Source: Candidatus Wirthbacteria bacterium (lineage in GTDB: Bacteria > Patescibacteriota > CG2-30-54-11). From it: a stretch of 64,000 nt of DNA. A model generated the notes under the pieces. That model saw only the letters and a program-made list of their open reading frames with translations, did no database searches and was not told where the DNA came from. Positions 18,501 to 42,100 of the stretch are shown in pieces; positions within the stretch are counted from its first letter, which is position 1, and every line of letters begins with the position of its first letter. The translations under genes were made by a program, and so were the position numbers. The stretch covers positions 128,148-192,147 of the forward strand of contig CAISZI010000040.1 of NCBI GenBank assembly GCA_903889905.1. The letters are read 5' to 3'.

Positions 18501-20670
18501 CAATGCTGATGAAACGGCTACCGTGAAACAAACCGAACTAACGGTGGAACCCCAGGGGGAAGCATTGGAACCTGTCTTTGCCGAGAAGCCACCTGAGGAT
18601 GTTGCGGCTGAACTCAAACTGGAGCAAAAAGCTGAAACTCTGGCCGAAGTTGACGTCAAAACAATCCCTGACCAAAACGAAGTCATTGCCGAAGAAATCC
18701 CGGAAGCGCTCAAGGGTCAAATCGCTGGTCAGGACGGATTGGAACAATCCACAACCGAATTTGTACCGATTGCGGCTCAAGGCATTGTTGAAGGCGAACC
18801 AGTTCCTGCAACGCAGCTGCTAGAACAAACTCAAACTGCACACAACGACACTCCACTCGATCAACCCGTTGAAGGTGCGCTTGATGCGACGCAGATAACA
18901 ACGGCAGAGCAACCATTGACAGCCGACGGTGTTAAGCCAGAAAGCGAACCTGAACACAACTTAATTGATGAACAAACCGCGGCGAGTGAAGCCCCTCTAG
19001 CCGGAGCGTCACCCATATTAGATACCAGTCAAACACCTGCGACTGAGCTTGCGGCAGAAGTTCCAGTCGAAACCCCGGTGGAAGCCCAAGTGGAAATCCC
19101 AGTGGAAGCGCCAGTCGAAACCCCGGTGGAAGCCCAAGTGGAACCACAAGCAGAACCACAAGCAGAACCCATGATTGAGCCAGTACCGGAAGTGGTTGTA
19201 GAGGAAACGACCCAAATAACGGAGGAAGCAACCAGCAACGAAGTTGAAGCACAATCTGAAGCATCAAAAGCAGCTGAAGAAACCGAAGCATTGGCAGAAC
19301 CTCTCGCACCAGAAATCCAGCCCGAAGTTGTCGAACTTGAACCAGAAACACAAGCTGACCTGGTAGCTAGTGAATTCAACGAGCGTATCGACAAACTGCA
19401 AGCCGAATTGGAAACTCAAGAAAATAATGAAAAAGAAGAAAACGATAAAGAAGATGTTGAAAAAGTTGCCACCAATCTGAAGGAACTCGCTGAGCAGGAA
19501 AACAAAACCGAAGTGATGCTCGAAGAAGAGTTGCGTACCCAAAAAGCCATGGCTGGACTTGGCAAAGCGCTTGGTTTTGAACATATCGAAGGGCCACAAG
19601 CGGAGATTGAGCAGGTGGATGGCGAAGCCGTATTGGTCGAACCCAAAGATGAAATACCCACAGAGATTGTAGAACCAGAATCTGCTGAAACCGAGCCCGT
19701 TATGCCCGAACCCGTTGAAACCGAACCTGTTGAAACCGAACCCGTTGAAACCGAGCCTGTTGAAACCGAGCCTGTTGAAACCAAACATGATATTACCGAG
19801 GATGTGGTCATTGAAGACGAAGCATTGCATCAGCTGCAAAAAGAAACTGAACAACAGGTTGAGGAACAATTGGAAGAACAACGCGTTGCGGAAGAGTTGA
19901 TTGAGAAGGAGGAAGCCGAGGAAGTTGATGACGAGGCTGCCAAAGCCGAGCAGGAACGAGAGGAAGCCGATGAAAAAGCCGTGATTGCCAAGAAATCGCA
20001 TGACGCCGAAGAAGCTTTGCTGGCCGAATTGGAGCTGGAAGCAGAATTGCAACGGTTACAGGTTGCTGAAATACAAACTGCTGAGGAGATGAGTGACGAA
20101 GAAATAGAAGAAGCTAACCTCATGAATTCATTGCGTGAAATTCAGTTAGCAAAAACGGAGTTGACACATTATCGTCGTACCCAGGAGAACGACCTTGAAA
20201 TCGTCTTTGAGCCGGCGATTAAGGATTTGCCACGCAAAAAGGAATTGCTGGAGAAGGTCAAAGATGACCCACGCCTGATGGATTTGATCAAAACCTGCCC
20301 CAACCATTGTGAGCGTGGCTGCCAGGATTTCCCCTGCCGCTGGATCTTGGAAACCATGGACGACGAATATGTCCGCGATCGCATCTTTGGTTGGTATGAA
20401 AGCAAAAAAGCAGCCGAACAAACCCAGGAACAATTCATGGCTCAGTATGAAAAAAGTTTAAGCAAAATCGAAACTCTGATCCGCGATCCGGGCTCACGCG
20501 AAAAATTAATGAAATACCTGGTTGAAATGTTGCGTGCCCTTGGTTACAGCAACCCCGAAGCCCAGGCGCAGCAAATGCTCGAAAATGCCGGTCAGTTGCG
20601 CCGTTTCATGCAAGCCAAGTATCAGCAGATTCAACAGTTATATCCGAAATTGCCGCAGTTTTTGCAATAA
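15580..20670 (+). CDS. Giant hyper-acidic repetitive protein with a C-terminal Cys-cluster domain
   Basis: 1,696 aa. N-terminal K/E-rich predicted coiled coil. The central roughly 800 aa is E/A/P/V/T-rich with PVE/TEPVE repeats. The conserved C-terminal roughly 200 aa contains CPNHCERGCQDFPCRW. An alternative start is the ATG at 15619. Confidence 0.7.
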   Translation: MPPEETLERNSENMEGESAEARVSAERKKTEDKLKQDAEDEQKGKEAELKKKIEAAGDKKDLKTLGALSREAHDNRHEELEKRSKELSDEIEKANAKEEDEKKIREKQVEKEAIDDELNKDKKIEGNDEAERKIKINNIVEDRTKEVDTEFDKYDARMKKALEERDLEQDTISRKVMEFERLLNEREEHKFEGKHVEHDDFRIWHQAKEIMDIQGDVQKDVLGYYNDMQQRGRELYAAIADNFDIKTLSDYNYKQIQFEANLRIEDHVKNRYDNFAGGVGKLWRDMKVNWFSRIEDLRGKWPDAEVDDFQKQVVDNHNDDAEINAWHQANSDQTKTNKTTEQVIEGGIAENVSEIDHLVEKLDGSVKDNVRETPSRNEKILMAERNLAAITSKVSQLEVIAQSAETAADFASVERRATELNREIGGTYLTGLTRIENLLGEDKESLQHAQDMTGDLSARVKVVENQIGKLMANLREPGNPEKIGVLVATLNSARQAHDKIEAALASSGISESDLWRYQGIEMKAQNEAGWEDMSVYVQALDAGKVASALQEEQSQLQQASPERAAQIDGILQDLAGIETLKTQMEQGKTTTEHSTNAVLLEDDQADAAQGGAESVTMDPETVDASAVLDGEIAKETKVEEPMAKQVEEVIETEAEIVPEVPAELIPPAVETVSVVQADTVEIPETKTEDKIKELDEREAQIEKFFQMRAEPTSGQNKVEEAVAGEAPQIFVTEQAMAEVTAEEVKPETAVEAAEEQETKSKAAESAAPVEPVEAVTERTPEQIQAAELAEAEANNIETEALDGIKPQAVGVEEQMTDVAADKVEATKSELTPEATQAAELAAAAEAIKIDEAVSEAELEPVKPGNLEKDKQAVKNGETDKIDDVEEAETKPNDGQDLSPEQAEPKPEIIEAKTVPVEDETVDAREATKVAEDLDNKTAVEMTAQNEKVETSVVIPDTETVKADAETNAKTNAEPNADETATVKQTELTVEPQGEALEPVFAEKPPEDVAAELKLEQKAETLAEVDVKTIPDQNEVIAEEIPEALKGQIAGQDGLEQSTTEFVPIAAQGIVEGEPVPATQLLEQTQTAHNDTPLDQPVEGALDATQITTAEQPLTADGVKPESEPEHNLIDEQTAASEAPLAGASPILDTSQTPATELAAEVPVETPVEAQVEIPVEAPVETPVEAQVEPQAEPQAEPMIEPVPEVVVEETTQITEEATSNEVEAQSEASKAAEETEALAEPLAPEIQPEVVELEPETQADLVASEFNERIDKLQAELETQENNEKEENDKEDVEKVATNLKELAEQENKTEVMLEEELRTQKAMAGLGKALGFEHIEGPQAEIEQVDGEAVLVEPKDEIPTEIVEPESAETEPVMPEPVETEPVETEPVETEPVETEPVETKHDITEDVVIEDEALHQLQKETEQQVEEQLEEQRVAEELIEKEEAEEVDDEAAKAEQEREEADEKAVIAKKSHDAEEALLAELELEAELQRLQVAEIQTAEEMSDEEIEEANLMNSLREIQLAKTELTHYRRTQENDLEIVFEPAIKDLPRKKELLEKVKDDPRLMDLIKTCPNHCERGCQDFPCRWILETMDDEYVRDRIFGWYESKKAAEQTQEQFMAQYEKSLSKIETLIRDPGSREKLMKYLVEMLRALGYSNPEAQAQQMLENAGQLRRFMQAKYQQIQQLYPKLPQFLQ
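19686..19785 (+). repeat. In-frame 15-bp tandem repeat (about 6 copies) encoding (E/K)TEPV units
   Basis: gaaaccgaacctgtt repeated. A second, imperfect roughly 54-bp duplication at about 19056-19145 encodes PVETPVEAQVE(I/P). Confidence 0.8.
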
Positions 20671-26852: not shown

Positions 26853-28034
26853 ATGGATGATATCAAAGCCGTCGTATTGGCTGCCGGCCGTTCCACTCGC
26901 ACCTATCCGCTCACAGTGACCCGTCCCAAACCACTACTACCGCTGCTGGGCAGCACGATATTGGAACACAACCTGACGCAGCTCAAGGGGTTAGTTAACG
27001 GTATTGTCATTGTCATCGGGTACTACGGCGAACAGATTCGTCAGGCCATTGGCTACGAATTTGACGGAGTTCCGGTGAGCTACATCGAACAAACCGAACA
27101 AAAAGGCACTGGCCACGCGCTGCTCTGCGCCAAAGATCTGGTAGGGGAGCGCTTCATGGTACTTAATGGCGACGATGTCTATGCCCGTGCCGACATCGAA
27201 CGCTGCTTACAGCATGACTACTGCGTGCTGGCTTCCTGGCACGAAGATGTTAGCCGTTTTGGTTACCTTCAGACCAGCGGCAACCTCGTGGAGGACATTA
27301 TTGAAAAGCCGGAAAACATCCGCACCGGACTGGTGAATACCGGTTTTTATGTGTTCAAACGCGATATTTTTGATATTCAACTCGAATACTCCATGCGCGG
27401 CGAACTGGAACTGACGGATTTTGTGCGCGTGATCGAGGAATTCCACTTCGAAGAAGCCAAAGACAACTGGATCCCGATTACCTACCCATGGAACCTGCTC
27501 GAGGCCAACGTGGCGTTATTACACAAGATTGAACCCACCATCCTGGGCAAAGTAGAAAACGGCGTGCATATCGATGGTTCTGTCTTTGTCGGCCCTGGTA
27601 CCACGGTCAAAGCAGGCACCTATATCGAAGGTCCGGTTTACATTGGCGCCAACTGCACCATTGGGCCCAATGCCTATATACGGCCTGATTCGATCATTTT
27701 GGATGAATGTTTTGTCGGTCATGGTACGGAAATTGTCGATTCTGTCCTTTTTCCCAAAGTTTTCTGTAAACACCGCGCTTATATCGGCCACTCGGTTATC
27801 GGCCGTGGCGTCAATATCGGTGCCGGCTTGATCACGGCTGATTTTCGTCATGATGGCGCTAACATCATCACCCTGGTCAAAGACCAGAAAGTGAACAGCA
27901 ACCGGCAGAAACTAGGCGCGTTCATTGGCGATGATGTCCATTTAGGAATCCACACCTCCATTTATCCTGGCCGCAAAATCTGGCCCAATCTTTCAACATT
28001 GCCGGGTGAAATTATCACCCAAGATCGTTTTTAG
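26853..28034 (+). CDS. Sugar-1-phosphate nucleotidyltransferase with a C-terminal left-handed beta-helix (hexapeptide) domain (RmlA/GlmU-like)
   Basis: N-terminal VVLAAGRSTRTYPLTVTRPKPLLPL (NTP-transferase G-x-G-T-R motif). The C-terminal roughly 150 aa has hexapeptide repeats (IGANCTIGPNAYI...). Confidence 0.75.
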   Translation: MDDIKAVVLAAGRSTRTYPLTVTRPKPLLPLLGSTILEHNLTQLKGLVNGIVIVIGYYGEQIRQAIGYEFDGVPVSYIEQTEQKGTGHALLCAKDLVGERFMVLNGDDVYARADIERCLQHDYCVLASWHEDVSRFGYLQTSGNLVEDIIEKPENIRTGLVNTGFYVFKRDIFDIQLEYSMRGELELTDFVRVIEEFHFEEAKDNWIPITYPWNLLEANVALLHKIEPTILGKVENGVHIDGSVFVGPGTTVKAGTYIEGPVYIGANCTIGPNAYIRPDSIILDECFVGHGTEIVDSVLFPKVFCKHRAYIGHSVIGRGVNIGAGLITADFRHDGANIITLVKDQKVNSNRQKLGAFIGDDVHLGIHTSIYPGRKIWPNLSTLPGEIITQDRF

Positions 28035-28124
28035 GCGTTAATCAAATTGATGATCATGTTACTTTTGAAGCATTGGCGTGTTGATCTAAGTGAAAAGATT
28101 AATTCTTAGCCGAGGTAACTGTTT

Positions 28125-28739
28125 GTGGCTACGCCAGGTGCATCACTTTCTTATCAGCGTGTGTCGCTGCAGGACGAAAAACTGTTGGTAGATGCCGCCA
28201 AGCAGGATTTGGCGCAATTTCAAACGCTCTATGCCCTCTATTTTTCGCAAATCTATCACTATTGCTATTTTCACACGTTTGATCCAATCGTTGCGGAAGA
28301 TTTGTGCAGCGACATTTTTTTGAAAGCACTTGAAGCCTTTCCCAAATTCACCTGGAAAAATGTACCGTTTGGCGCCTGGCTGCAACGTATTGCCAGCAAC
28401 CGCCTCAAAAATCACTACCGTGACCACAAAGCACTGATCGATCTGGAGGAAGTCGAGAATTTTGATTTCGGCGAGGGCGACGGCATGCTGGACAAACTGG
28501 CCGCAGCCGAACGCAAACTGGTGGTTAAGGAAGTGCTTAAAACATTGGGTTTCAGTTGTCAGGAAGTACTGATCTACCGTTTCTTTCACGATTTTTCCTA
28601 TGATCAGATCGCATCTCAGGTCGAGAAGTCGGTTGCAGCCTGCAAAATGCAAGTCAAACGTTGCCTGGCCAAGATGAAAGTTACGATTCAGGCGCGCTCG
28701 CCGGAGATCATTGCTGCGCATCCAGCCTTCACCAAATAA
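28125..28739 (+). CDS. ECF-type sigma-70 family RNA polymerase sigma factor
   Basis: Region 2 (LYALYFSQIYHYCYFHTFDPIVAEDLCSDIFLKALEAF) and region 4 HTH (QEVLIYRFFHDFSYDQIASQVEKSVAACKMQVKRCL). The start is uncertain (GTG at 28125). Confidence 0.75.
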   Translation: MATPGASLSYQRVSLQDEKLLVDAAKQDLAQFQTLYALYFSQIYHYCYFHTFDPIVAEDLCSDIFLKALEAFPKFTWKNVPFGAWLQRIASNRLKNHYRDHKALIDLEEVENFDFGEGDGMLDKLAAAERKLVVKEVLKTLGFSCQEVLIYRFFHDFSYDQIASQVEKSVAACKMQVKRCLAKMKVTIQARSPEIIAAHPAFTK

Positions 28740-28759
28740 TTCACCCAAGGATAATTCCC

Positions 28760-31700
28760 ATGGCCAAATCTAACGACGTCCAGCCCAACCCCGAACAAGA
28801 CCCAAACCTTGAACACCTTGCCGATGAATTGAAATCGATTTACCAGCAGGAAATACCATTGCGGCCCGATTTCAAAAGTGAACTGGGCAGTAAACTTGCC
28901 GCTGATGCTCGTGTCAAATCTGGTAAGTCCAGTCCGAGCCCAAAACATCAGGGACAACATTTCCTGGAATCATTCAAATCTTTTTTTCGTTTCCCCTGGC
29001 CAAAATGGGCTTATGCCGGGGCTAGTCTGGTGGTCGTGGTGGGACTGGTGGGGTCAGTTTATGGTTGGAGCAAATTGAGCCAAAAGCAGATTACATCCCC
29101 TGCTGCGGTTGCCGTGACCCACAAGACCGTCGTTTATGCCGACACAGAACTTACCCTTGCTAAATTACTGGATTCAGAGCTGGGTGTTTTGCCCAAAGGC
29201 TCCTTTGCAATTTCGAGTAAAGAATCCTTAAATCGTGTCGCCTTTGTGGCGGCATTGAAGGTAGAACCAGCGATTGCAGGAGATTTCACCTGGTCGGATG
29301 ACAGCAAAAAAGTGACCTTTGTGCCCAAAACAACATTGGCCACCGGGACGACCTACCACATTACCGTGGCCAGCACCGCCTTGAATGACAAAGGTGAGCC
29401 GCTGGCAAGTCCAGCCGAGTGGAGCATTCAGACGATACCGACTTTTGCGATTACTTCGACCACTCCCGCCGATCAAGGTGAAGGCGTTGATCGCACGAGC
29501 AGCATTGAAGTTCAATTCAACTACCGTAATGTCGCTTTGGCCGATTTTCAGAAGAATTTCAGCATAGATCCCTCCACTCCAGGTAAATTTGAACAACACG
29601 ACAGCGCGTTCGTTTTTTTGAGCGACCAACCACTTGCTGCCGAAAAATTGTATACCGTCACAGTCAAAAAGGAACTCATCAACCAGGACGGGTACCAACT
29701 CACGGCGGATAAAGTCTTCCAATTCCGCACCACGCGACAGGGAACAGCACAGTTTGCGGCCGAGCCCTGGTTAGATTTTGATTTGCGAACGGGCGCAATC
29801 GTGAGCTGGACGTCGGGCCACACCGAGAATTTTGTGGGTGCCAGCTCGAGCAACATGACCGATGCTGATGTGGTTAAATTTGAGCTTTATCCGGTTGACC
29901 AGAAAACGTTGTTGGCCAGCCGCCAGTATCAGTATGACCGCATGTTTGACAGCATTTTGCCCGATTTGGGAAGCCAGAAACCGACCGTTTCATGGCAGGC
30001 GAAAATCAGTGAACTGCGCGTTCAGGGCGATAATTATTCAACCAAGGACTTTAATCTGAATATTGGTTTGCCAAATTTGACTGCTGGTTATTATCTGGTC
30101 AAGGCTACAAATGACAAATTGGTTAGCCCGCGTTTTATTTATATCGTGGTGCAACCGCAACAGATCTCGCAGCAGGTGGATAATAATCACAAGCAAGTCG
30201 TGTGGGTGGTTGATTTTTCCACAGGCCAAACGGTGCCCAATCAGGCCGTCGATTTTTATACGCTGCGCAATCAGGTCAAAGTAATTGGTACCGAGTTCAC
30301 CGACGGGAATGGCCTGGTGGTCACTGACAAATACCAGGACGCCGATGCGATCGTTTCCAAAAATGGCTTACTCATCCTCAATTCCGGTATGTATTACACT
30401 GGTTACGCGGGGCCAACTACACCCATTCAAAATTATAAGGCTGTGATGGCCACGGACAGGCCCATCTATCGTCAGGGTGACACTGTCAAGTTCAAAGCCA
30501 TCATCCGTATGGACAATGACGGCAGTTTCAGCCCGCCACCCAAAGGTTCTGTCGTTTTGGTTTCATTAGGGGGTAATCGGTCGGTCCAGGGTAGTGAGTC
30601 AGTCCAGACCAAACTGGTGCTGGATAACACCAATGGCAGCATTGCGGGGGAAATCAAGATCCCGGAGACAACCTCCAGTGGAGATATCAGTTTGACCTTG
30701 TTTCTGCAAAATAACGCAACGTCAGATTATATCGACAGTTACTCATTTCCTGTTGACCAATACCGTAAACCGGATTATGAAATTTCAGTCAGCGCCGACA
30801 AACAGGAAGTTTTGTCAGGCGACACTGTCACCGCCACGATCAAGGCGAACTACTTTTTTGGCCAGCCAGTCAGCAACAAACAAGTCAAATACACCGTCTA
30901 TCGCACCTCAACCAGCGAACCGTTGCCGGGCGTGACGAAGACGACACCCGATCAGAATTACTGGTATGGTGGCGACCAGGTGGAACAGAAGACGGTTACA
31001 CTGGATACCCAGGGAACAGCTGTGGTTAAAATCAAATCTGATATTGCCGGGAAGTTAACCTCGCAGCAGTATAGTTTAGTGGTGGAATATACCGATGAAT
31101 CTGAGATTACCACTTCCGCCGGTGTCGGCTGGATGGTGCATCAGGGAGATTTTGCTGCCTTTGCTTTCTCGGCCAAGGCAGCCGTGAGGGTGAGCGATAA
31201 AACTGCCGTGACCGTTGACCTGTACGGCGCCATGAGTCGCAACAAGTGGCAACAAGCAGTTCCTTTAAGTATGACGCTGACCCGTTCCTGGACTGATGTC
31301 AAAATCAGTGAACAAACGGTTTACAATCCCGCCACCAAAAAACAGGATGTCAAACAAACGCGCACCTATAACCGCCAGTCCGAAGCCGCCGGCAACCTGC
31401 AGGCAGTCACCGATGCCAAGGGACAAGCTGTTTTTCAGGTTAGCCTGAGCAAACCCGGATCGTATACACTCGATATCGTGGGTCAGGATCAAGCTGGGCG
31501 TGCCATCAATACGTCACTTGTCATCATGGTCAGCGATGGAACCGCAGCCAGCTGGTGGCAGATTGCCAATCAGCAATTCAGCCTGAGCAGCGACCATGAG
31601 AGCTACAAAGTAGGGGACAAGGCAACGCTTTCGCTGCTGACGGACAAAACCAGCACGATGGCATTAGCCATTTTGCACAAAAATAACATTCTGGACTATC

Positions 31701-34594
31701 AACTCATCAAGCTGGATGGCGGCCAGGCCGACTGGACCTACACAATCAGTGAGCAACTACGCCCCAATGGCACTGTCGCCGTCATCATTCCCGGTCAGGA
31801 CGGGACGTTCATGGGCAGTTCACAGTCGATCGTGGTTAACAATGACGACAAGAAATTACTTCCTGCCTTGAACTTTACCGACAAAACGTATTTGCCCGGA
31901 GATCAGGTCAATTTGCAGCTTATGGTCAATGGTGCCGATGGCAAACTTGTGGCCAATGAGGCAACAGTCTATCTGGTGGACAAATCTGCTCTGGCCCTGA
32001 ACCCGTCTGCTCTTCAGGATTGGCAGACGCAATTGTATGCGCCACGCAATTACGACCTGCATACCCACAATTCGCAGGATGATTTATATGGTACGGGTGG
32101 GGGAGGCGCAGAAGGTGGCGGGGGCTGTTTTCCTGCCGGCACAACGGTGCAAACACCGAGTGGGCCAGCAGCCATCGAGACGATCCGCGCTGGCGATTCA
32201 GTCTGGTCCTATGATCTTGCCACCAGCAAAGTAGTGCCCAACACGGTAACGCAACTTCTCGTTCATTCGGAGTATACCCAGGATCCCTTGCTTGAGTTAG
32301 GCCTAAGCGATGGAACGACACTAGATATAACCGCAAATCACCGCGTTTACGATCCCAAAATCGGAGACTTCAAAGTCATCGGAGACTTCGCCATCGGCGA
32401 CAAGCTTCTCAACGGATCGGACAATAATTTGGTAACGATTGTCAGCAAAAAAGAACTTGGTGGTGGCCAGACAGTCTACAATCTTGCCCTGCAAAAAACT
32501 CCCCACACCTACCTGGTAGGCAGCGGCATCGTGGTGCACAACGACAAAAATGGCGAATCCTCGGTGCGTAAGGATTTCCGTGATAGTGCGCTCTTTGACG
32601 CCCAGGTGCAAAACAACGGCAATACCCAGATTCAAGCCAAATTACCTGACAACTTGACCACCTGGGTGGCGATTGCGCAAGTCTTTGGCCCTAATAACTC
32701 TGTTGGCCAGACGACCAGGGAACTGGTGGTTACCAAAAAGTTAATCTTGCGTCCCAGTCTGCCTGGTTTTTTGGTTACTGGCGACAAACTTGGAATCACA
32801 ACCATGGTTAATAATTATACCGGTAACAAACAAACGGTGAGTGTTGACCTAACCGGTTCCGGTTTTGACGTTGTCGGCAGTGGCAGCCAGAAAATCACAG
32901 TCAACAATGGTGACACACAGACGGTGATTTTCAACGTGCAATCCAAAGTTCCCGGCCAGATGACCGTTCACCTCAAAGCCCAGACGGCCGACGCCAAAGC
33001 GGTGGATGAAATTGAACAAAAATTACCGGTGATGGATAATACTATTGCCACACACCAGCAGTCCTTTGCCGCCCTGGGTAAAGACCAAACCCTGACCATT
33101 GGCCATCCTGGAGAGGTGAACCCCAAAGACAGTCTGGCCGTCACAGTTTATCCTTCCATACTTTCGTTGGGTAACCGTTTGTACTCCTATGTCGAAGGTC
33201 AGGATGTGCAGAATGTGCCGGCGATCAGCGCCAAATTGATCAATGACCTGCTGGTTTATCAGCTTGCACCCAGTTGGCTGGACAAAGCGCAGATGACCAA
33301 CACGATCAACAATGAAATCAATTTTATCCGCAATAACCGGACCAATAAAGGCTGGGGTTATAGTACTTATGACAGTGTTGATATCCTGACAACGATGCAA
33401 GCGATGCAGGCGCTTGGCATGGCCAAAAACATGCAGTGGGCTGGCATTGACGCCGATATGGTATCGGCCGGATTAGCCACTTTGAACGATTACCTGAATG
33501 CGGCCAATGTCAGCATGGATGACAAGGCTTTCATCCTGTATGTCGAAGCCCTGTTCGACCAGGGTAATCTGGTCAAAACGCAACAACTTGCCGACCACGT
33601 CACTGAGCTTTTACCACCGTCGCAGGCCTTTTTGAGCCTTGCACTGACGCGTTTGCACGATTCCACCCGTGCTTACCAAATCATGAGTAATCTGCTCGCG
33701 ACTGCCAAGCAGGAAAGCGGTATGAGTTATTTCCAGGGTACAGCCAAATCTTTCCAGCGCACTTTAAGTGCTCAGTTCCAGACAGGGATTGTTCTCTTTG
33801 CTGCCACCGAACTCAAACTCCCGCAGGCCGATCTGGTCAAAATGGCACAGTGGATCATGATCTCCCGCAACAGTTCAGCCTGGAAAAACCTCTATGATGC
33901 CGACGCCATGCTGACCGGTTTGGTGAGCTATGCCAGTGAGTTAGAAAAAAACAGCGCCAATTTCACTTACGAAGTCTTCCTCAACGATCAATCCATCGGT
34001 AAAGGCAAAGTCGAAAATGGTCAGCTCAGTGGTGATTCTCCGGCCATTATTGTCCCCAACACTGGTTTGCAAAAAGGTGACAATACGCTTAGGGTCCAGT
34101 CCAGTCTTGATGGCTTTACTTTATACGTAGCCACTGACAACCAAATCTGGAACGCGACACCACCGGCGAGCTCCAGGATCACTCTGGACCGCATCTATTC
34201 GACCAACGGTAACGCGTCAACTATGTTTAACCTGGGGGATACAATCACGGTCGAATACCATGTCAACGCCGCCGCTTTGCAGGGTTCATCGCTGTTGAAT
34301 TATACCAATCTGGCACTACGCGAATACTTTCCGGCTGGAATCGAATTTGGCGGCGAGGTCTATTGTCAATATGACGAGCAAGATAAATGTCTGAACCTGT
34401 GGCCAGACCAGAAGGCGCAGTTTATCAATTACTCCTCCTGGCTTTCGATGGCCAAGCTTGCTCAGGTAAAAACAGGAAAGGTTACCTACAAGGCTTCATT
34501 TCGCGGCACCTTCAATGCGCTCCCAACGTCACTTACCACAGCATTAAATGACGCCTACGCCTATACTTCTCCCACAACGATCACGATCAAGTAG
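28760..34594 (+). CDS. Giant membrane-anchored alpha-2-macroglobulin-like protein with an anti-sigma-like N-terminus and an embedded Hint/BIL domain
   Basis: AAGGA RBS before the ATG at 28760. N-terminal roughly 85-aa cytoplasmic segment plus one TM (ASLVVVVGLVGSVYGW). MG/bait-like modules (DRPIYRQGDTVKFKAI, DQYRKPDYEISV). A Hint domain (CFPAGT....VVHN). A TED-like helical region in which YVEGQD replaces the GCGEQN thioester site. Confidence 0.7.
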   Translation: MAKSNDVQPNPEQDPNLEHLADELKSIYQQEIPLRPDFKSELGSKLAADARVKSGKSSPSPKHQGQHFLESFKSFFRFPWPKWAYAGASLVVVVGLVGSVYGWSKLSQKQITSPAAVAVTHKTVVYADTELTLAKLLDSELGVLPKGSFAISSKESLNRVAFVAALKVEPAIAGDFTWSDDSKKVTFVPKTTLATGTTYHITVASTALNDKGEPLASPAEWSIQTIPTFAITSTTPADQGEGVDRTSSIEVQFNYRNVALADFQKNFSIDPSTPGKFEQHDSAFVFLSDQPLAAEKLYTVTVKKELINQDGYQLTADKVFQFRTTRQGTAQFAAEPWLDFDLRTGAIVSWTSGHTENFVGASSSNMTDADVVKFELYPVDQKTLLASRQYQYDRMFDSILPDLGSQKPTVSWQAKISELRVQGDNYSTKDFNLNIGLPNLTAGYYLVKATNDKLVSPRFIYIVVQPQQISQQVDNNHKQVVWVVDFSTGQTVPNQAVDFYTLRNQVKVIGTEFTDGNGLVVTDKYQDADAIVSKNGLLILNSGMYYTGYAGPTTPIQNYKAVMATDRPIYRQGDTVKFKAIIRMDNDGSFSPPPKGSVVLVSLGGNRSVQGSESVQTKLVLDNTNGSIAGEIKIPETTSSGDISLTLFLQNNATSDYIDSYSFPVDQYRKPDYEISVSADKQEVLSGDTVTATIKANYFFGQPVSNKQVKYTVYRTSTSEPLPGVTKTTPDQNYWYGGDQVEQKTVTLDTQGTAVVKIKSDIAGKLTSQQYSLVVEYTDESEITTSAGVGWMVHQGDFAAFAFSAKAAVRVSDKTAVTVDLYGAMSRNKWQQAVPLSMTLTRSWTDVKISEQTVYNPATKKQDVKQTRTYNRQSEAAGNLQAVTDAKGQAVFQVSLSKPGSYTLDIVGQDQAGRAINTSLVIMVSDGTAASWWQIANQQFSLSSDHESYKVGDKATLSLLTDKTSTMALAILHKNNILDYQLIKLDGGQADWTYTISEQLRPNGTVAVIIPGQDGTFMGSSQSIVVNNDDKKLLPALNFTDKTYLPGDQVNLQLMVNGADGKLVANEATVYLVDKSALALNPSALQDWQTQLYAPRNYDLHTHNSQDDLYGTGGGGAEGGGGCFPAGTTVQTPSGPAAIETIRAGDSVWSYDLATSKVVPNTVTQLLVHSEYTQDPLLELGLSDGTTLDITANHRVYDPKIGDFKVIGDFAIGDKLLNGSDNNLVTIVSKKELGGGQTVYNLALQKTPHTYLVGSGIVVHNDKNGESSVRKDFRDSALFDAQVQNNGNTQIQAKLPDNLTTWVAIAQVFGPNNSVGQTTRELVVTKKLILRPSLPGFLVTGDKLGITTMVNNYTGNKQTVSVDLTGSGFDVVGSGSQKITVNNGDTQTVIFNVQSKVPGQMTVHLKAQTADAKAVDEIEQKLPVMDNTIATHQQSFAALGKDQTLTIGHPGEVNPKDSLAVTVYPSILSLGNRLYSYVEGQDVQNVPAISAKLINDLLVYQLAPSWLDKAQMTNTINNEINFIRNNRTNKGWGYSTYDSVDILTTMQAMQALGMAKNMQWAGIDADMVSAGLATLNDYLNAANVSMDDKAFILYVEALFDQGNLVKTQQLADHVTELLPPSQAFLSLALTRLHDSTRAYQIMSNLLATAKQESGMSYFQGTAKSFQRTLSAQFQTGIVLFAATELKLPQADLVKMAQWIMISRNSSAWKNLYDADAMLTGLVSYASELEKNSANFTYEVFLNDQSIGKGKVENGQLSGDSPAIIVPNTGLQKGDNTLRVQSSLDGFTLYVATDNQIWNATPPASSRITLDRIYSTNGNASTMFNLGDTITVEYHVNAAALQGSSLLNYTNLALREYFPAGIEFGGEVYCQYDEQDKCLNLWPDQKAQFINYSSWLSMAKLAQVKTGKVTYKASFRGTFNALPTSLTTALNDAYAYTSPTTITIK
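32126..32542 (+). other. Hint / bacterial intein-like (BIL) domain inside the A2M-like ORF
   Basis: 139 aa, from Cys1 (CFPAGTTVQTP) to the terminal VVHN. It is followed by Asp, so there is no +1 Cys/Ser/Thr. There is no homing-endonuclease insert, and a Gly-rich linker (GTGGGGAEGGGG) lies immediately upstream. Confidence 0.7.
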
Positions 34595-35494
34595 ATGCAG
34601 ACAATCAGCTGGCAGCGACAAAAGTGGGTCATGTCTGGTTTGGTAGTCGCGGTGGCGGCAGCTTGCTTCCTGACAATGATTGTTGCCATAAACAAACCGC
34701 AGGCCAAAGTTCAGAAAGGCTTGCCGGTCATGACACTTGCGGCCAGTCAGTTGTTTTATCCCGATATCTTCAACGCCAGTCGTCAACCGCTCCATGCACT
34801 TACGGGACAATCTTTGGCGGGTGGCATTACTTCGCACCACCTGCCAGTGGCTGCCAGGCTGATCAATGAATTTTATGCGGCGCTGGGAGAACAACATCCG
34901 TCCACAGTGGTTGTGCTGGTAACCAATCATTTTCATTTTGACGATGCCAAAGTACGGACGGCGGCAGTGCAGTTTGTGACGCCACTAGGTCAGATCAATA
35001 CAACTGCCGCCGTCATTCGCCAGCTGGCGGCGGAAAGTCTGGTGGTTGAGGACGGAGCGATGCTGACCGGGGAACACGGCATCTGGACACAGATTCCGTT
35101 TATTCAACGATATCTGGGTAACCAGACGCTGGTACTGCCATTGATTGTGGGACCGGAAAGTTCGGAAGAGACCTTGCAGCAACTCGAACAAACCATCCGC
35201 AAATTGCTGCCCGCGGATACGGTTTGGGTATTGTCGTCGGACTTGTGCCATTATTTGTCGCAGCAGGCCTGTCACCAGCAGGATGAGCAAACCATCCCCG
35301 ATCTTGCTTCTCAACAAAACAACTTGCTGCAACCCCACGCTGACGATGCTTACCGGGCAGGGGATCTCTTTTTCCTGCATTTGCAAGCCATGCAAGCCCA
35401 AAATGGGATTGAACTCGACCGCGGCAATAGTGCCGACTTTGGCTCTGACCCGGTTAGTACCACGGGTTATGTCAGCATGGTTTTCCCCAGGTAA
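34595..35494 (+). CDS. Membrane-anchored MEMO1-family-like protein (class III extradiol-dioxygenase-like fold)
   Basis: N-terminal TM, then GGITSHHLPVAARLINEFYAALGEQHPSTVVVLVTNHFHF, which resembles the MEMO pattern aGivPHAGYxySG...vvilGPsH. The call is weak. Confidence 0.4.
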   Translation: MQTISWQRQKWVMSGLVVAVAAACFLTMIVAINKPQAKVQKGLPVMTLAASQLFYPDIFNASRQPLHALTGQSLAGGITSHHLPVAARLINEFYAALGEQHPSTVVVLVTNHFHFDDAKVRTAAVQFVTPLGQINTTAAVIRQLAAESLVVEDGAMLTGEHGIWTQIPFIQRYLGNQTLVLPLIVGPESSEETLQQLEQTIRKLLPADTVWVLSSDLCHYLSQQACHQQDEQTIPDLASQQNNLLQPHADDAYRAGDLFFLHLQAMQAQNGIELDRGNSADFGSDPVSTTGYVSMVFPR

Positions 35495-35588
35495 ACCAAG
35501 GCAAAGCGTTGGTTTAGTTTGTGGTTCTATTATCTGCTATTCAGACTTGTTGATTTACTCCTTTATGCTCTCTTATCCGTTTGTCGGT

Positions 35589-36116
35589 TCATTTTGATTG
35601 TTGGCAAGCTATCAAATCTGCAGTCTTGAAAGCAATCGATTCATCAAGACGATTAATCTCACTATAATCTCCGGCTCTTTGAGCAGCCTTTAATGCATTC
35701 TTCTCCACATCAATCTTTATAATTTTGCCTAATATTTCATCAAAACGAGCGAGTTGATCTTTGAAAGCAACAATTGATTTTTCAAGCGATATTTTATCCT
35801 CGTCGCTCGTCTTTTTATCGTTACATTGCTTTTCAAGCTGGGCTATCGTGCTATCGGTTCGATCAATAGCAGCTCGTGTATCTTTTTCGCTCATGAGGAC
35901 AGGTTGGGGAATTTCATATATGAAATCTGTCCCTTGATTACCGTGTTTTGTCGTTTGCCCTCTTGCCGCGACGGCAGACAGGACCTGTCGTAACGCTCGT
36001 CGGCCAGCGGCTGCAATACGACTGAAACCAGTAGGTTCTCGAGCCTGTGATTCTGGGTTTTCCGCACTTTGCACACTTCCGTCTTCAAATAAAGCCATAC
36101 AACCTCCTAGTGACAA
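35589..36116 (-). CDS. Hypothetical protein (predicted coiled coil), immediately downstream of the giant PBP gene
   Basis: 175-aa ORF, with a 14-bp gap/overlap to the end of the giant gene. Confidence 0.45.
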   Translation of the reverse strand: MSLGGCMALFEDGSVQSAENPESQAREPTGFSRIAAAGRRALRQVLSAVAARGQTTKHGNQGTDFIYEIPQPVLMSEKDTRAAIDRTDSTIAQLEKQCNDKKTSDEDKISLEKSIVAFKDQLARFDEILGKIIKIDVEKNALKAAQRAGDYSEINRLDESIAFKTADLIACQQSK

Positions 36117-36129
36117 TTATATTCATTGA

Positions 36130-39100
36130 TTATTTAAGTTGAGCAAAATATTCTTCGACCATCCCTGTCGCGAGCTTAATCATGTCGAATCCACGGCCTT
36201 GACCGGCGGACAGCGTAACCGTGAACGCAATCTGGCGGCCATTTTTGTCTTCAGCAAAACCGGAAAAAATCTGGTTGTTGGAATTATTGCCTGTTTCGGC
36301 CGTACTCGTCTTGCCATAGAATTTGATCCCGGTTCTGGACTCCACACCAATAAAGGGAGCGCTAATCACCCCATCCGTGACATCAGTACGCAGCGCCTGC
36401 CTCATCCCTGCAACTTGCTCAGAGGACAAAGGTAATTGACCAGATTTTTCGGATGAAGCACCCTTGACGGTTGTTGGGACAACTTCCTGACCGTGATTGG
36501 CGACCGCCGCCATCAGGCGAGTGATTTCCATCGCCGAAAGCGAAATAGGTCCCTGGCCCATGCCCATAAATCCAGCGTCCGTGATCCCAAATTGCGTCTT
36601 GGCTTCACTGGCCCAGGCTGGATCGCCCACAGTACCATGTGACGATGGAATGCCATGCACCGCACTATCTACGCCAATACCGATAGAATGAGCAAAACGC
36701 GCGACAGCATCCAATCCCTGACTCTCAGCAATCCGTTCGCCCAGTTGATAAAAATAGACGTTGTGGGAAACGGCCAGCGCTTCGGCACCGGTGATCGGTT
36801 TGTTTACACCTTGGGACGTCGGTAGTATATGAAAGCCACCCATACCGTCGGGAATCTGCAGGATATTAGGCGTGTCTTGCGGTATATTGGTATCAATGCC
36901 ATAATGCGCGGCCGCAGCCAGAGTCAACACTTTCGCCACTGAACCCGGTGTCATGATGTCAGTGAACGCATGGCTGGTAGAATTTTCCTGGCCCTTTTCA
37001 TCCAGACTAAAAGCACTTAGCACTGCCCCGGTTTCCGGATTCATCATAATGGCGGTGAGGCCCTTACCGCCGTTGGCCGTGACAAAAGGTTTGGCCAGTT
37101 CGATATTGTGCTGATTCAATGTCGGGTCAATCGTCGTATTCTCGGCCAAAAACTGGGTGCGCTGTTCGGGAGTCAGGACTTCGGTGTTGTTGAAGAAGTT
37201 TTCTACCTGTGCGTCGCGACTGCTACTCTGATAATCATGAAATCCGGCAGGTAAATCAAATTGGCCATTCACCGCAGCCATGTAACGGCCGAATTTTCCG
37301 GCCATGGCGGTAAATTGCTCCCAGGTAACCATGACGTCGTGCGCTTTGCCGCCATCCGTGTGCGAAGGATCGGAATACACGACGAAGGTACGGCTCTCGC
37401 CATTCGTGCCCGGTTCACTGAAAATTGCCTCGACAGTGACCGTTACTTCGCTTTTCACCGCTCGTTCCAAGACCACATGGTCATGGGTGCCAACATTGCG
37501 GATCGTTGCATCTTCGCCACTGGCGGGATTGGAGAGCCACACCATCGGTTTGGCGCCATAGGTCAAACGTTCTTGCAAAACACTTAAGAAGTCAGCAATG
37601 TTGGAGGTTTCGATTGGCGTCACGTCCAAGCCAGCTTTGCTGGCAAGTGCTTCCAGGCCACGCGGGTATATGCCCACATCAGTTCTGGTCAGACCAGTTG
37701 AAGCTGAATCCAACGCCTTGGCCCAACCGAGGTTGGGGTCGATAATTGTGTAATCATCCCGTTGCGAAGCCAATTCGAAGGCCATTTGCGACATTTTGGT
37801 CGCCATCCCGTTATTCGTGAATTTCCCTTCCATGCGCAGGCTGTTCTGCCAGGCTGCCAATTGACTATCGGCCGCATCCTTTGCCTGCAACAATTCCACT
37901 GTGCTCGATCGTGGCAAAGGAACAATAGCCTCACGCTCTGTTCCTGCCTGCTGCATGACGCGTCCGAGATAGTTCCAACGCACGCCCTGTGCTTGGGAAG
38001 GATCCGGAATCAACTCATAAACATTCTGCTGTGAGTCAATCCACAAATCATCCCGGGAAATATTGTTATTATCATGACCCAAAATCTGGGTATTCAATTT
38101 GTCATACAATCGGACCGTGACACCACTATCGTCGATAATCATTTGTTCCACCGGCTTCAAATGCCCGGCAGTATCCAGTTCCTTGAGACCACCTTTGGGG
38201 GAGTAAACCAGCTGACCGCCGTTACGAGTTTGAACAACAACAGAATTGCCGTCTTTGTCCGTTGTACGAACGACATCGTACTGATCGGTGATCTGAGCAA
38301 ACGGAATAGCCCTGTCCACGGCAATTTCACCTGCCGTAGCGGTTTTGTTTGCATCGACTGTTAATATGCGGGGGGCGGTTGCCGTCGTCGACTGCTCTGC
38401 ATCAACGATATGACTGCGCCAAAGTTGCTGGTCATAATAAGCTTGCATCAAATCGGTGCTATGAGGACCAAACACCTGCTCGCGTTGAAGCGCCTCGATA
38501 AAATTTTCACCCGGGCGGCTAACAATCAGAGCAGGATCCTTGACGGGTACCGGCAGGCTACCGCTTGCAACCATGGATTCGATCAACGGCAGTGTTTCCT
38601 CACGTCCGGGAAGCAACATGCGGTTGATCTCCACCCTAGCCCGCGCGATCTCGGCATCTGAGACCATCTGGTTGTTGTTCATCAAATCCAGGCCATCATT
38701 GGCACGGCGCAACAACGCATTCACATTGTCCAGACTGGCGGCATTGTAGCGGCTTGGCATCTGAACCATGCCGGCGAGTAACACTGATTCGGCCAGATTC
38801 AAACTACCAGGATCTTTGCCAAACCATTTATTTGCAGCGGCACCAATACCTTCCACACCGCCGAAATTGCCCAAATTTTCATAGGCTGTCAAAATTTCCC
38901 GAGGACTCAGATTCATCGACAGGAATTGTGCGCGCACAAGATCTCCAATTTTGCGTTCCAGGGTTTTGCTGGCGTCAATGCTGAGCAGTTCGCGGGAAGT
39001 CTGTGTCGTGATGTTGCTGCCACCAGTCATGACTTTGCCGGTATCGGCCAGGTCACGCACAGCACGCATCGGACCCAAAGTGTCAACACCACCACCAAGT

Positions 39101-42100
39101 GCAGCAAAGCGTTTATCTTCAAAGGCCATGGTGGCCATTTGCAGATAGGGAGAAATATTTTCCAGCGGCACGGCGTTGGTCAACACGGTGTCAAATTGGT
39201 GAGTAGAACCACCGCTTGGAATTTGCAGGTTATCAATGGCTTTTTCCACTATGGAACCCATAAGTTTGAACAGCATTCCTTCATAACCCACCAATGATTC
39301 ACTTTGATGTCCTGCATTGGCCACAACGTTGGGTTTGCTGCTGGCGGACGATTCACTGGCGATTAGCTGTTCGCCCTGGTTTTTGAATTCTATCGCTGTC
39401 GCGCGGATGTCCTGCAGTTGCAAAACAAGGTCACGCAACACGGGATCCAAAATGCTGTTTAATATGTCTGCCACATTTTCCACATTGGGCAAATCGGCCT
39501 TGACTTGACGCAGCATGCCTTGCCAGAATTTCTCGTTGAGTAAGTCGGTAATATTAAAATCCATGCCCGGTTTCTCCAGTGTCCTGCCGCCAACATCCAC
39601 CCCAATCAGACCGTATTTGGCCAGCATTTCCTTTTGTCCCAGTTCCACGACACCATTGGACCTCAGCACGAAAACCCGACCATCGTCATCGGTATAAATT
39701 GGCATGCGATCAAACCAGTCAACACTGATCTTGCCATCGGCCTTGACCAGGTGCAGCCCGCGCTCTTGCATAAATTGAGCACGTGTTTCCACAGCTGCCG
39801 TACCCAAGGGCTGAATGGTTTTACCATCCAGAAAGTATGACAACCTGTCTTGACCGACAAATACCAGTTTGCCGCCATTTTTGGTCACCATGGGTTCGTT
39901 ACCGGTATGTGAAAGTGAATACGGGTTACCATCACTATCACGAAAACCTGCTTCGTCGCCAGCCCCATCAAGTCTTGAACCATCAACAACCCTGGCCAGT
40001 TGGTCCGCGACTTTTTCCAGTGAAGTTATTTTTTCATAGGCCCGATATTGGTCCACATTCAACTGATGCAAGAAACCTTTATCGGCAAACAGACGATGAC
40101 TCCCGTCAAAATCCACCCGCGTCGCCGGATCTGAGCGCAGGCTTTTGGCCATCTGCTCGTCCCAGGTCCGGGCCGTAAATCCCGAAGCTGTCAGTGTCAT
40201 TATTTCAGCAATGCGGCTGCCATCGGTGTGCACATATACAGGCAGCCCTCGGCCATCCGTGTAGGGTACCTCGTTGGCATCGACAGCAACAGCCCAGCCA
40301 CTGGCGGTAACGTAATCAGTATCCGACATCAGTTGGCTGCTTACGGGGACGAATTTTCCGTGCTCCACTACATAAGTCCCACCGTACGCTTGTTCGTATA
40401 CAATATGGCCTTTGGCATCTACCATCGGCCGGCCACCTTCCTGATGAACAGTATAGGCTTGCTGATTTGCGTCCAGCACAAAATTTCGATCGCTGGATAA
40501 TGTCAGTCCTTGATTGCCGGCGACCAAATCCGCCATCAGGTCATTTTCAATAATACCGAGGCTGTCCTGCTGTCCGACTACCGCCCGTTCCGCTACGGAA
40601 GCGATATAACCCTGCACTTCCAGCAATTGTTTCCCGTCTTTGGAGAGCACAAAAGCGTGTTTGGAAACCGGATCGATATAGGCATGTCCGCTTTCCGTAC
40701 CATTGGCCGTAGCCACTGGGAGTAGTCCTGATTGACGCATTTGCCAGGAATATTGCAAAGTACCAATATCAAACAACTTGTCAGGTCCAAGCGCACGCTC
40801 AACGGAAGTATCAAGTTGGACAACCGTGGCGACCTGGTTTAAATCCGGTTTGTCGGAATTTAATAGATATTTTCCGTTTTCATCACGATAGAGAACCCCG
40901 CCATTGGACTGCGGATCAATCCCTTTGGGAAGCAGGGTGTCGAGCGTAAGACTGGAACCTGAGTCGAGGAGAGCTTGATTGACCGCAATTCTAACCTCAG
41001 GGGATTGCAACGAGGTGAGATCCAACCCGATACCACGCACTCCCGGAACCATTTCCCGGGAACGTAGATAAGGAGCCAACGCCTTGAATCCATTTTGAGT
41101 GGCGACAGCATTCAGGTCAATTTCGTTGCCGGAACTGACAATGGCAAAATCAAAATAAACAATACCGTCCCGTGTCAGTTGCTGCGGCGAAACTCCCAGG
41201 GTTTGAAACAGTTCAAACAAACTGACATCTTTTTCCAGCGCACCGCTATCTTGATTACCTGACTGCATTAATTGCACCAGACGTTCCGCAGCCTGCGGCC
41301 GGGTATTGAGATGGCTGGCATCCACACCCAGATATTCCGCCACTTTTGTCAACCGGTTCCAGGTCGTATTCAAGGCACCTCGCGCGACACCGCCGGAATT
41401 GCTCGAATCGAGCAACACCTGTGCATTGATCTCGCCATTCGCATCCGGATCAATCCGCACATGGTTGATCCAGGCTCCTTGGTTCAAAACTACGTCATCC
41501 AGTTTGGATACCACGGAACTTAAGCGACTTTCAGTTTGTTTAATCAAATCAGCCGGCAGTTGATTCCCTTCGACCAGGATTTTATTGATCTGGATTCCTT
41601 CCTGGTTTTCTGTCCCCCGCAAAGCCTTGCCGAGTCTGTCCAGGGCGTCGCTTTGTGCGGGCAAAAAATTGTCAGCGGCTGCCTTGGCACGGACCATTTC
41701 CACCACGATTTCGTTGCGGCTGCCGCGTTCCCCAGACCAGTGGGTGTCAAGTGGTCGTGCCGTGGCAATTGTACCGTCCGGATAAATATAGAAATTGGCC
41801 AGTTCCTCGTCCTGTCGCCCAGCCTGGGCAAGGACAAAATTCTGCTTGCCCTCGGCAGACCCGAGATCGGCTTTGGTTGCTGTGGCGGTACGGACCGTCA
41901 ACTCGTGCGGCAATTGCAACATATCGTGCGTAACGGTATGGTCAATTCCCGGTAAGCGTGCAACCGCTGCCTGCGTGGCGTCTGTCATATCGATAAACTT
42001 ACCCAGATTGTGTTCACCCAGCATCAGTAAAGTAGCCTGCTCTGCAGTCCCGTAGTATTTGATGGCGCTGCCTGCGACACCATCACGCAGTGTTACGGCC

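Follow-up and report, generated by a model that had tools for sequence, protein, structure and literature searches.

Bacterial members of the alpha-2-macroglobulin (A2M) superfamily have been described in two classes. Proteins of the YfaS and Pseudomonas MagD type have the A2M fold without the thioester motif CxEQ, are associated with the inner membrane and are encoded beside the operon partners yfaP/Q/T/A (magABCEF); we know of no Hint domain in this group. Proteins of the ECAM type, represented by ECAM (YfhM) of Escherichia coli and Sa-A2M of Salmonella (PDB 5a42, 4u48 and 4rtd), carry a lipoprotein signal and a thioester, are encoded in an operon with pbpC, and contain a ring of macroglobulin (MG) domains, a bait-region domain (BRD), MG7, CUB, a thioester domain (TED) and a C-terminal MG domain (CTMG). 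Here we describe a protein that fits neither class. It is encoded in a 64,000-nucleotide stretch of contig CAISZI010000040.1 from a Candidatus Wirthbacteria bacterium (hereafter the window; positions are counted from its first letter), and it joins a predicted complete A2M fold, degenerate at the thioester site, to a Hint autoprocessing domain that alignments place in the bait loop. Its gene lies directly between those for an extracytoplasmic function (ECF) sigma factor and a Memo-like protein. We lean towards the view that the Hint domain serves as a built-in self-cleaving (or self-splicing) bait of the A2M and that, in the sub-type to which the window protein belongs, the cytoplasmic tail holds the sigma factor.

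Most members of the A2M/TEP superfamily carry an intact CxEQ motif, and some, such as C5 and MagD, do not. In C3 and C4 the loop equivalent to the bait is cut by furin during maturation of the pro-proteins. Scission of this loop, between the MG6/BRD halves and MG7, yields two chains or leads to activation (PMC9352918, PMC4498604). In human A2M the cleaved bait retracts from the central channel and triggers a conformational change (PMC9352918), and in ECAM the untethered, disordered bait that results from the cut displaces the TED from the C-terminal MG domain, which activates the protein (PMC4498604). On the side of the Hint domains, the closest described group is that of the type-A bacterial intein-like (BIL) domains, such as BIL4 of Clostridium thermocellum (PDB 2lwy), in which 'cleavage products dominate', though splicing is possible (PMC4031507).

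The Hint domain and its position in the A2M homologue

The coordinates and genes given for this DNA in an initial reading of its sequence (the first-pass annotation) stand, except that the A2M homologue has 1,944 amino acids (aa) and not 1,945. Its gene and the domains that follow its membrane anchor are as follows.

28760..34594, plus strand: gene for the membrane-anchored, thioester-less, Hint-containing A2M homologue (ATG at 28760; 1,944 aa)
29447..29731, plus strand: Big_5 Ig-like domain, the better of two such stretches in an N-terminal extension (Pfam PF13205, 1.3e-12)
30440..31060, plus strand: MG2 and MG3/bMG5-like macroglobulin domains, aa 561-767 (MG2 7.6e-11, above cutoff; MG3 and bMG5 weak, below cutoff)
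31583..31999, plus strand: A2M bait-region domain, aa 942-1080 (Pfam A2M_BRD, 2.8e-14; pLDDT 80-95)
32060..32125, plus strand: disordered Gly-rich N-side bait linker, aa 1101-1122, ending ...GTGGGGAEGGGG (pLDDT <50 in both models)
32126..32542, plus strand: Hint domain, type-A BIL-like and predicted to be autoprocessing, aa 1123-1261 (Cys1123, Thr1191, His1194, His1260, Asn1261; Pfam and PDB matches)
32543..32587, plus strand: C-side bait linker, aa 1262-1276, DKNGESSVRKDFRDS (pLDDT <50)
32588..32851, plus strand: A2M (MG7) domain, aa 1277-1364, with the motif LPDNLTTW (Pfam PF00207, 6.3e-19)
33158..33946, plus strand: TED-like alpha/alpha helical domain, aa ~1467-1729 (12 high-pLDDT helices in both AlphaFold models)
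33182..33235, plus strand: degenerate thioester site, YSYVEGQDVQNVPAISAK (Asn1485 for Cys, Ala1488 for Gln)
33962..34591, plus strand: C-terminal MG (CTMG/bMG10-like) beta domain, aa ~1735-1944 (beta strands in the models; aligns to the ECAM CTMG)

The Pfam matches above cutoff are Big_5, MG2 (aa 561-664, 42.7 bits against a cutoff of 32.8), A2M_BRD (54.1 bits; cutoff 22.7), PT-HINT/Hint and A2M (68.1 bits; cutoff 21), while the Pfam TED and bMG10 models and the NCBIfam collection gave no match to the protein. AlphaFold models covering aa 900-1944 (pLDDT 76-81) contain MG domains, a CUB-like beta region, the 12-helix domain and the C-terminal beta domain, and the top PDB matches found for the model by Foldseek are ECAM (5a42, 4.7e-38), the Salmonella A2M (4u48), A2ML1, CD109, TEP1 and C5. 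On these profile matches and predicted structures, the window protein is a member of the A2M superfamily with the complete fold, as the first-pass annotation had proposed, TED-like helical domain included. A generic Ig-repeat adhesin was considered in its place, but the matches to the Pfam A2M models and the outcome of the fold search rule it out. With ECAM and Sa-A2M the protein shares the whole domain series from the MG ring to the C-terminal MG domain, as well as anchorage to the cytoplasmic membrane. It differs from them in being anchored by an N-terminal tail and transmembrane (TM) segment with no lipobox, in its additional Big_5 extension, in the 139-aa Hint of the bait loop and in its genetic partners, an ECF sigma factor and a Memo-like protein; a C-terminal TM segment is absent.

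The Hint domain sits between the Pfam matches to A2M_BRD (942-1080) and A2M/MG7 (1277-1364). The alignment used for the first AlphaFold model consisted mostly of Hint-less sequences, and the Hint was not modelled; once Hint-containing family sequences were used for a second model, it appeared as an all-beta domain (pLDDT 80-93), folded at the bait position and bracketed by the two low-confidence linkers (1101-1122 and 1262-1276). In the HMMER alignment, ...VVHN/DKNGESSVRKDFRDSALF (the slash marks the junction) falls opposite ...ARLVHVEEPHTETVRKYFPETWIW of human A2M, at the C-terminal end of the human bait region, and the C-side junction of the Hint is aligned to the bait-region end '...ARLVHVEEPHTETVRKYFPE'. 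MAFFT alignment with ECAM puts the insertion between about G949/D950 and K955, inside the bait, with the C-side linker opposite K955-R956-G957-G958. Mapped onto ECAM, the Hint thus comes after residues 923-942, which are disordered in the cleaved protein, and just before R956, G958 and N963, which bind the C-terminal MG domain once the bait has been cut (PMC4498604). Relatives that lack the domain point to the same place: P0004 and P0005 have a run of Gly residues at the Hint position, and a frameshift-fragmented A2M in a metagenome-assembled genome of Bacillota (locus L075, 7539-9866) has an 'empty site', GGSGAEGGEGGG-DRKDFRDTAFF, in which GAEGGEGGG-DRKDFRD matches the window flanks GGGGAEGGGG-Hint-DKNGESSVRKDFRDSALF. 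By alignment, then, the Hint is placed in the bait loop, between BRD and MG7. The first-pass annotation was right that a Hint domain precedes the TED-like region, but the domain does not adjoin the TED site; it lies in the bait, about 200 residues upstream of the TED.

The domain itself runs from CFPAGT to VVHN over 139 aa, with GGGGAEGGGG just before it and Asp just after it. Its junctions are Gly1122/Cys1123 and His1260-Asn1261/Asp1262, its block B reads T1191-x-x-H1194, and blocks A, B and G are complete, which bears out the assignment made in the first-pass annotation. Over aa 1120-1262 the best-scoring Pfam Hint model is PT-HINT of the polymorphic toxins (PF07591; 8.3e-11, 42.7 bits, cutoff 27.7), the Hint model also scores above cutoff (1.4e-07), and the closest solved structure is the bacterial intein-like domain 2lwy (E = 1.4e-10). 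With Cys1, a block-B T-x-x-H, a C-terminal His-Asn and no Cys, Ser or Thr at the +1 position, the residue pattern is, as read from the sequence, that of a type-A BIL. Described type-A BILs share these residues, the mini size and a secreted or surface-exposed host protein (PMC4031507); in contrast to them, the host and the site, an A2M bait loop, are new here, and the domain is retained clade-wide, whereas BILs are scattered among hypervariable adhesins and toxins. The setting also differs from that of the PT-HINT toxins: the window Hint is followed by MG7-CUB-TED-MG rather than by a toxin domain, and it is internal and not a release module.

The protein contains three Cys residues in all (1123, 1869 and 1877) and no C.EQ motif anywhere. 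In alignments with 46 relatives and ECAM (CLEQ1187), the thioester motif YPYG-C-LE-Q faces EGQDVQ-N-VP-A, which leaves Asn1485 in place of the Cys and Ala1488 in place of the Gln; 'EGQDVQNVPAISAK' aligns opposite 'YPYGCLEQTASG' in the alignments with the relatives and ECAM. The thioester loss claimed in the first-pass annotation is thereby confirmed. The closest full-length relatives, P0058 and P0110, have likewise lost CxEQ, and the loss in these genes is secondary, as in other thioester-less bacterial A2Ms.

A family of Hint-bearing A2Ms

A word-indexed search first gave two other examples only, P0002 (35% identical) and P0003 (24% identical, with an intact GCMEQ), and a search of the same kind with a profile of the Hint and its flanks returned fragments only. 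The extent of the family became clear when 1.84 billion cluster representatives were searched exhaustively with HMMER, the query being a profile made of the end of the BRD, the Hint and the start of MG7. At E <= 1e-30 this yielded 490 proteins, and among the best 150 of them are 133 that match BRD, Hint and MG7 in one stretch. The family thus counts at least 133 clusters (at 50% identity), whose representatives are no more than 50% identical to each other. Most of the proteins are 1,640-1,780 aa long, with the Hint at about residue 740-1070, and public records name them only 'alpha-2-macroglobulin family protein', 'Ig-like domain-containing protein' or 'hypothetical'.

The residues expected for autoprocessing are conserved almost without exception. 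Gly at position -1, Cys1, the block-B His, the penultimate His and the terminal Asn are invariant in all 133 sequences, the block-B Thr is present in 132 and Phe2 in 131. The +1 residue is Gln in 49, Asp in 46, Glu in 16 and Gly in 12 (together 123 of 133), and Ser in three. Conservation continues downstream of the Hint, with Lys at +2 in 130 and Gly at +3 in 118 of the sequences, and with an Arg nine residues after the domain (Arg1270 in the window protein) in every one of them. The CxEQ motif is kept in 115 of the 128 Hint-A2Ms that extend past the thioester site. The median length of the Hint is 129 aa, and there is therefore no endonuclease. A canonical intein or mobile element was considered as the origin of the insertion and rejected on four grounds: the +1 residue of the window Hint is Asp, an endonuclease is missing, the insertion site is a variable bait loop, and the domain is retained across the clade.

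In a scan of species-representative genomes, Hint-A2M genes were found mostly in Patescibacteria, their hosts being Peri-, Moran-, Uhr-, Parcu-, Roizman-, Nomura- and Daviesbacteria, WWE3 and Microgenomates. Nearly all Hint-bearing A2Ms, the window protein included, fall into one clade of a neighbour-joining tree calculated with the Hint removed and without bootstrap; P0196 and P0201 lie elsewhere, and the window protein forms a sister branch together with P0058 and P0110. A metagenome scan for further long, sigma-coupled Hint-A2Ms returned unrelated Hint hosts only.

Outside the A2Ms, the nearest relatives of the Hint domain occur in 'poly-Hint' proteins (P0059, P0080, P0138, P0139, P0185 and P0204), which consist of three to eight tandem Hints with only K-G-G(-G) linkers between them (...VHN/KGG/CF...); to our knowledge, this architecture has not been described. 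On two metagenome contigs (L087 and L090), a related Hint ends the polypeptide two or three residues past His-Asn, the layout of a Hedgehog-like 'C-terminal autoprocessing domain' in bacteria.

Sigma coupling, the Memo-like partner and other neighbours

The A2M gene is the middle one of three co-directional, closely packed genes, which form an operon; its products are a sigma factor, an A2M with a type-II membrane anchor and a Memo-like protein that is secreted. Their features, together with those of the membrane anchor, are listed below.

28125..28739, plus strand: ECF-type sigma factor gene (204 aa, GTG start; Sigma70_r2, Sigma70_r4_2, TIGR02937)
28760..29005, plus strand: predicted cytoplasmic N-terminal tail of the A2M homologue, aa 1-82, a candidate anti-sigma segment (hydrophilic stretch before the sole TM segment; conserved motif R-P/S-x-F-K-x-x-L)
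29006..29065, plus strand: single TM segment, aa ~83-102 (the sole Kyte-Doolittle window >1.6)
34595..35494, plus strand: Memo-like protein gene (299 aa; N-terminal signal/TM segment; Pfam Memo, TIGR04336)

The gap between the sigma and A2M genes is 20 nt, and the ATG of the Memo-like gene directly abuts the A2M stop codon. The sigma protein matches Pfam Sigma70_r2 (1.1e-14) and Sigma70_r4_2 (7.7e-07) as well as TIGR02937, sigma70-ECF (79 bits; cutoff 42.9), and has regions 2 and 4 only, as ECF sigma factors do. Promoter and terminator scans of 27900-36300 gave counts no higher than chance. Upstream of the sigma genes, the window (about 28090-28115) and locus L084 (about 250-275) have a weak common motif, GTGTTG-N5-6-AGTGAA, which is not clear in L002 when the three loci are aligned; it is a possible autoregulated ECF promoter element.

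Analysis of open reading frames (ORFs) and hidden Markov model matches in the fetched Hint-A2M loci distinguished three sub-types. In the first (L001, L006, L009, L012, L013, L015, L020, L022, L025, L027 and others), the A2M has a signal-peptide N-terminus and a C-terminal TM segment and usually keeps the thioester, and a sigma gene is lacking; none was found upstream of about 17 Hint-A2Ms with N-termini of the signal-peptide type. In the second (L011, L018 and L019), a GT51 penicillin-binding protein (PBP) gene lies directly upstream of a thioester-bearing Hint-A2M of 2,170-2,230 aa, an arrangement that echoes the pairing of yfhM with pbpC (PMC4498604). The third, comprising the window and six other loci (L002, with P0002; L084, with P0058; L005; L008; L017; and L026), has an ECF sigma gene directly upstream of, or overlapping, an A2M gene whose product has a cytoplasmic tail of 50-90 aa and a TM segment but no C-terminal TM segment. 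The sigma genes upstream of the closest A2M relatives, in L002 and L084, are orthologues of the window gene (55-56% identity), and the sigma partner noted in the first-pass annotation therefore proves to be a conserved linkage. The CxEQ motif is absent from five of the six complete genes of this third sub-type (Fisher p = 0.015 against the other sub-types, phylogeny not corrected for). The thioester-less, sigma-coupled form is thus a rare sub-type of the Hint-A2M family. Sigma-coupled A2Ms without a Hint also exist (L003, with P0004, in which the thioester is present, and L070), and most Hint-A2Ms lack a sigma gene; Hint, thioester and sigma coupling therefore vary independently.

The order of genes at these loci, a sigma gene followed, often with overlap, by one for a single-pass membrane protein with its N-terminus in the cytoplasm and a large ectodomain, is that of known ECF sigma/anti-sigma pairs, RsgI among them. 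RsgI is an autoproteolytic anti-sigma factor and offers a precedent for a self-cleaving ectodomain. The window protein differs from known anti-sigma factors in that its ectodomain is a 1,840-aa A2M and that its tail has no recognizable anti-sigma domain. The N-in single-pass topology and the position directly after, or overlapping, the sigma gene recur in L003 and L070 as well as in the Hint loci, and the window tail aligns with the tails of seven other sigma-adjacent A2Ms. Given its place directly after an ECF sigma gene and its conserved cytoplasmic tail, the sub-type 3 A2M most plausibly acts as the membrane partner, likely the anti-sigma factor, of the adjoining ECF sigma factor.

The Memo-like protein matches Pfam Memo (PF01875; 1.8e-19, 70.4 bits, cutoff 27) and TIGR04336 (93.1 bits; cutoff 26). 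A signal-bearing Memo-like gene adjoins the Hint-A2M gene in 17 other loci (L004, L006-L010, L012-L015, L017, L022, L023, L026-L028 and L084), whereas among about 55 loci with a Hint-less A2M only two (L064 and L075, both from Bacillota) have such a neighbour; in L084 the order sigma-A2M-Memo is identical to that in the window. The Memo-like protein is thus a conserved extracytoplasmic third partner of the Hint-A2Ms. At L075, the Memo gene lies downstream of the Hint-less A2M.

A giant class-A PBP gene (36130-45525, minus strand) is convergent to the operon and lies 1.5 kb from the A2M gene. The last third of its 3,131-aa product is a class-A PBP (Transgly 2115-2282, Transpeptidase 2824-3109), and the first ~2,100 aa have no Pfam match. 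Although convergent, the gene recalls the pairing of A2M with PbpC; beside it lies a 175-aa ORF (35589-36116, minus strand). The partners of the YfaS/MagD operons are absent from the window, where the neighbours are instead the sigma factor, the Memo-like protein, ParB, a nucleotidyl transferase and an MFS transporter. The surroundings, with ParB, the nucleotidyl transferase, LepA, aminoacyl-tRNA synthetases and DnaX, are those of an ordinary chromosome. LepA shares only 59-61% identity with its named matches from Chloroflexota and Peregrinibacteria/Gracilibacteria, which points to a deep lineage close to Chloroflexota and Patescibacteria. The window also abounds in large extracytoplasmic proteins; further predicted surface proteins are one of 928 aa with FG-GAP/DUF4214 repeats (274-3060, plus strand) and one with a CAP domain (cysteine-rich secretory protein family) and Ig-like domains (46213-47703, plus strand). 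Other genes in it include a 1,696-aa ORF without Pfam match (15580-20670, plus strand), which lies within a strong AT skew (0.23-0.40 at 16-20 kb), and a gene that joins a class-II aminoacyl-tRNA synthetase (tRNA-synt_2, OB anticodon domain) to a tRNA_edit domain of the YbaK type at the C-terminus (49470-51434, plus strand).

Proposed self-cleavage of the bait and its alternatives

The mechanism that we favour would run as follows. After export and folding, Cys1123 would undergo an N-S acyl shift at the Gly1122/Cys1123 junction and Asn1261 would cyclize at the Asn1261/Asp1262 junction, such that the A2M chain would be cut autocatalytically at one or both ends of the Hint, where proteases cut canonical A2Ms. 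A short C-side segment of the bait (DKNGESSVR...) would be freed, and the outcome would be either a two-chain mature form or a conformational change of the kind that follows cleavage, possibly conditional and in need of no specificity-matched protease. We prefer this reading because the domain has all the residues for the N-S shift and Asn cyclization, because it has no +1 nucleophile, and because bait cutting is the activating event in A2Ms. Unlike in pro-C3 and pro-C4, where the cut is made by furin, it would come here from a built-in autoprocessing domain and not from an external protease. With the thioester lost and the E-x-M-Y motif degenerate, any consequence in the window protein must be non-covalent. 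The 82-aa cytoplasmic tail would most likely hold the co-transcribed ECF sigma factor; the A2M ectodomain would then be the part of an anti-sigma factor that serves as its sensor.

Several points weigh against this interpretation. Cleavage by the Hint is deduced from its residues and its position, and conserved catalytic residues would be expected of any self-removing Hint, whether or not it has a further function. If the domain splices as type-A BILs can, the product would be an ordinary Gly-rich bait like the empty site of L075, GAEGGEGGG-DRKDFRD. The loop alignments with ECAM are uncertain; moreover, the Hint family does not conserve the RDDR motif found in the CTMG of ECAM, nor does the window protein keep it, and the CTMG of the latter has also lost E-x-M-Y in the ECAM alignment; the details of ECAM activation may therefore not transfer. 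Constitutive self-cleavage would also seem to discharge the thioester-bearing members early, unless it is conditional or restricted to maturation. As for the tail, the fused anti-sigma module suggested in the first-pass annotation agrees with the gene order and topology, but not with the domain searches: none of the eight tails has an anti-sigma Pfam match at E <= 10, and a tail profile run against the PDB found no anti-sigma chain at E <= 10. Finally, the ectodomain would measure about 1,000 aa once cleaved, much more than a site-2 protease could take as a direct substrate.

Among the alternatives, the one that fares best, although we think it unlikely, is that the Hint is a self-splicing passenger, a domesticated or selfish BIL that excises itself and ligates its flanks to leave a single-chain A2M with a short Gly-rich bait. 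After Asn cyclization, the freed alpha-amine would attack the Gly-Cys thioester, and the domain would be at most a timer of folding or maturation. Type-A BILs can indeed splice without a +1 nucleophile, even though cleavage products dominate in those characterized (PMC4031507). The catalytic residues are conserved at both junctions of the Hint, and the joined flanks (GGGGAEGGGG followed by DKNGESSVRKDFRD) would resemble the uninterrupted bait of the Hint-less L075, P0004 and P0005. On the other hand, the insertion occupies a hypervariable surface-protein loop instead of a conserved site, and the Hint is kept across essentially the whole clade and in many candidate phyla rather than sporadically, which argues for a benefit to the host rather than parasitism. 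Besides, at no other place in the protein is cutting of the chain known to have a functional effect.

A bolder form of the self-cleaving bait, which we regard as quite unlikely, would see in the A2M ectodomain the sensor of an anti-sigma factor of a novel type. Once the bait was cut, whether by the Hint or by an attacking protease acting at the linkers, the A2M would undergo its typical conformational change, and the change would pass through the TM segment to release the sigma factor; proteolytic attack at the cell surface would thus be turned into transcription. In the thioester-bearing, C-terminally anchored proteins of Patescibacteria, cleavage by the Hint would instead arm the thioester with no protease involved, to give a self-activating covalent surface protein with which episymbionts might, for example, attach to their hosts.

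The first-pass annotation had proposed that the Hint could supply the covalent step for which the lost thioester no longer serves. Spelled out, the Gly1122-Cys1123 thioester made by the Hint would be a warhead: a target, the cell wall or a lipid would offer the attacking nucleophile, and the membrane-anchored N-terminal fragment would become covalently attached to it. Hints can transfer an N-terminal fragment in this way, as Hedgehog does to cholesterol. The Gly at -1 and the G/CF junction, both invariant, resemble those of Hedgehog, a match to the Pfam Hedgehog Hint model covers aa 1120-1197, and the window protein lacks CxEQ. The proposal was nevertheless not borne out and seems to us very improbable. 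Hint and CxEQ occur together in 115 of 128 evaluable family members, and replacement of the thioester is therefore not what the Hint, which sits in the bait loop, evolved for. A transfer reaction does not require the C-terminal His-Asn, which is strictly conserved, no region for recognition of a sterol or other adduct follows the Hint, and junctions of the form GG/CF ... HN/KG are also found in the poly-Hint proteins, which are unrelated to A2M. Least credible of all is a catalytically silent Hint acting as a folded exposed bait, spacer or binding module, with the flanking linkers as the real protease targets: both linkers are predicted to be disordered and external proteases could cut there, but the invariance of all the residues for both cleavage reactions across at least 133 diverged sequences would be hard to account for in a domain without catalysis.

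What emerges is the combination of two well-known modules at a mechanistically telling site, across a large and apparently undescribed family. Our literature search found no paper with a Hint, BIL or intein in an A2M and none linking A2M to ECF sigma factors; most subscription journals lay outside its coverage, and an earlier mention is possible. In every A2M, complement and TEP protein known to us, the switch is the cutting of the bait or activation loop by an external protease. If our reading is correct, an autoprocessing bait would allow an A2M trap to mature or fire independently of proteases, and Hint/BIL domains, of whose roles in bacteria little is understood as yet, would have in the bait loop a new niche that looks clearly functional. 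The secreted Memo-like partner, conserved as it is, offers a first genomic approach to the function of Memo in bacteria. The sigma-coupled sub-type would add A2M to the extracytoplasmic sensor domains. The Hint-A2M family is abundant in Patescibacteria, a group in which large surface proteins are thought to mediate contact with host cells.

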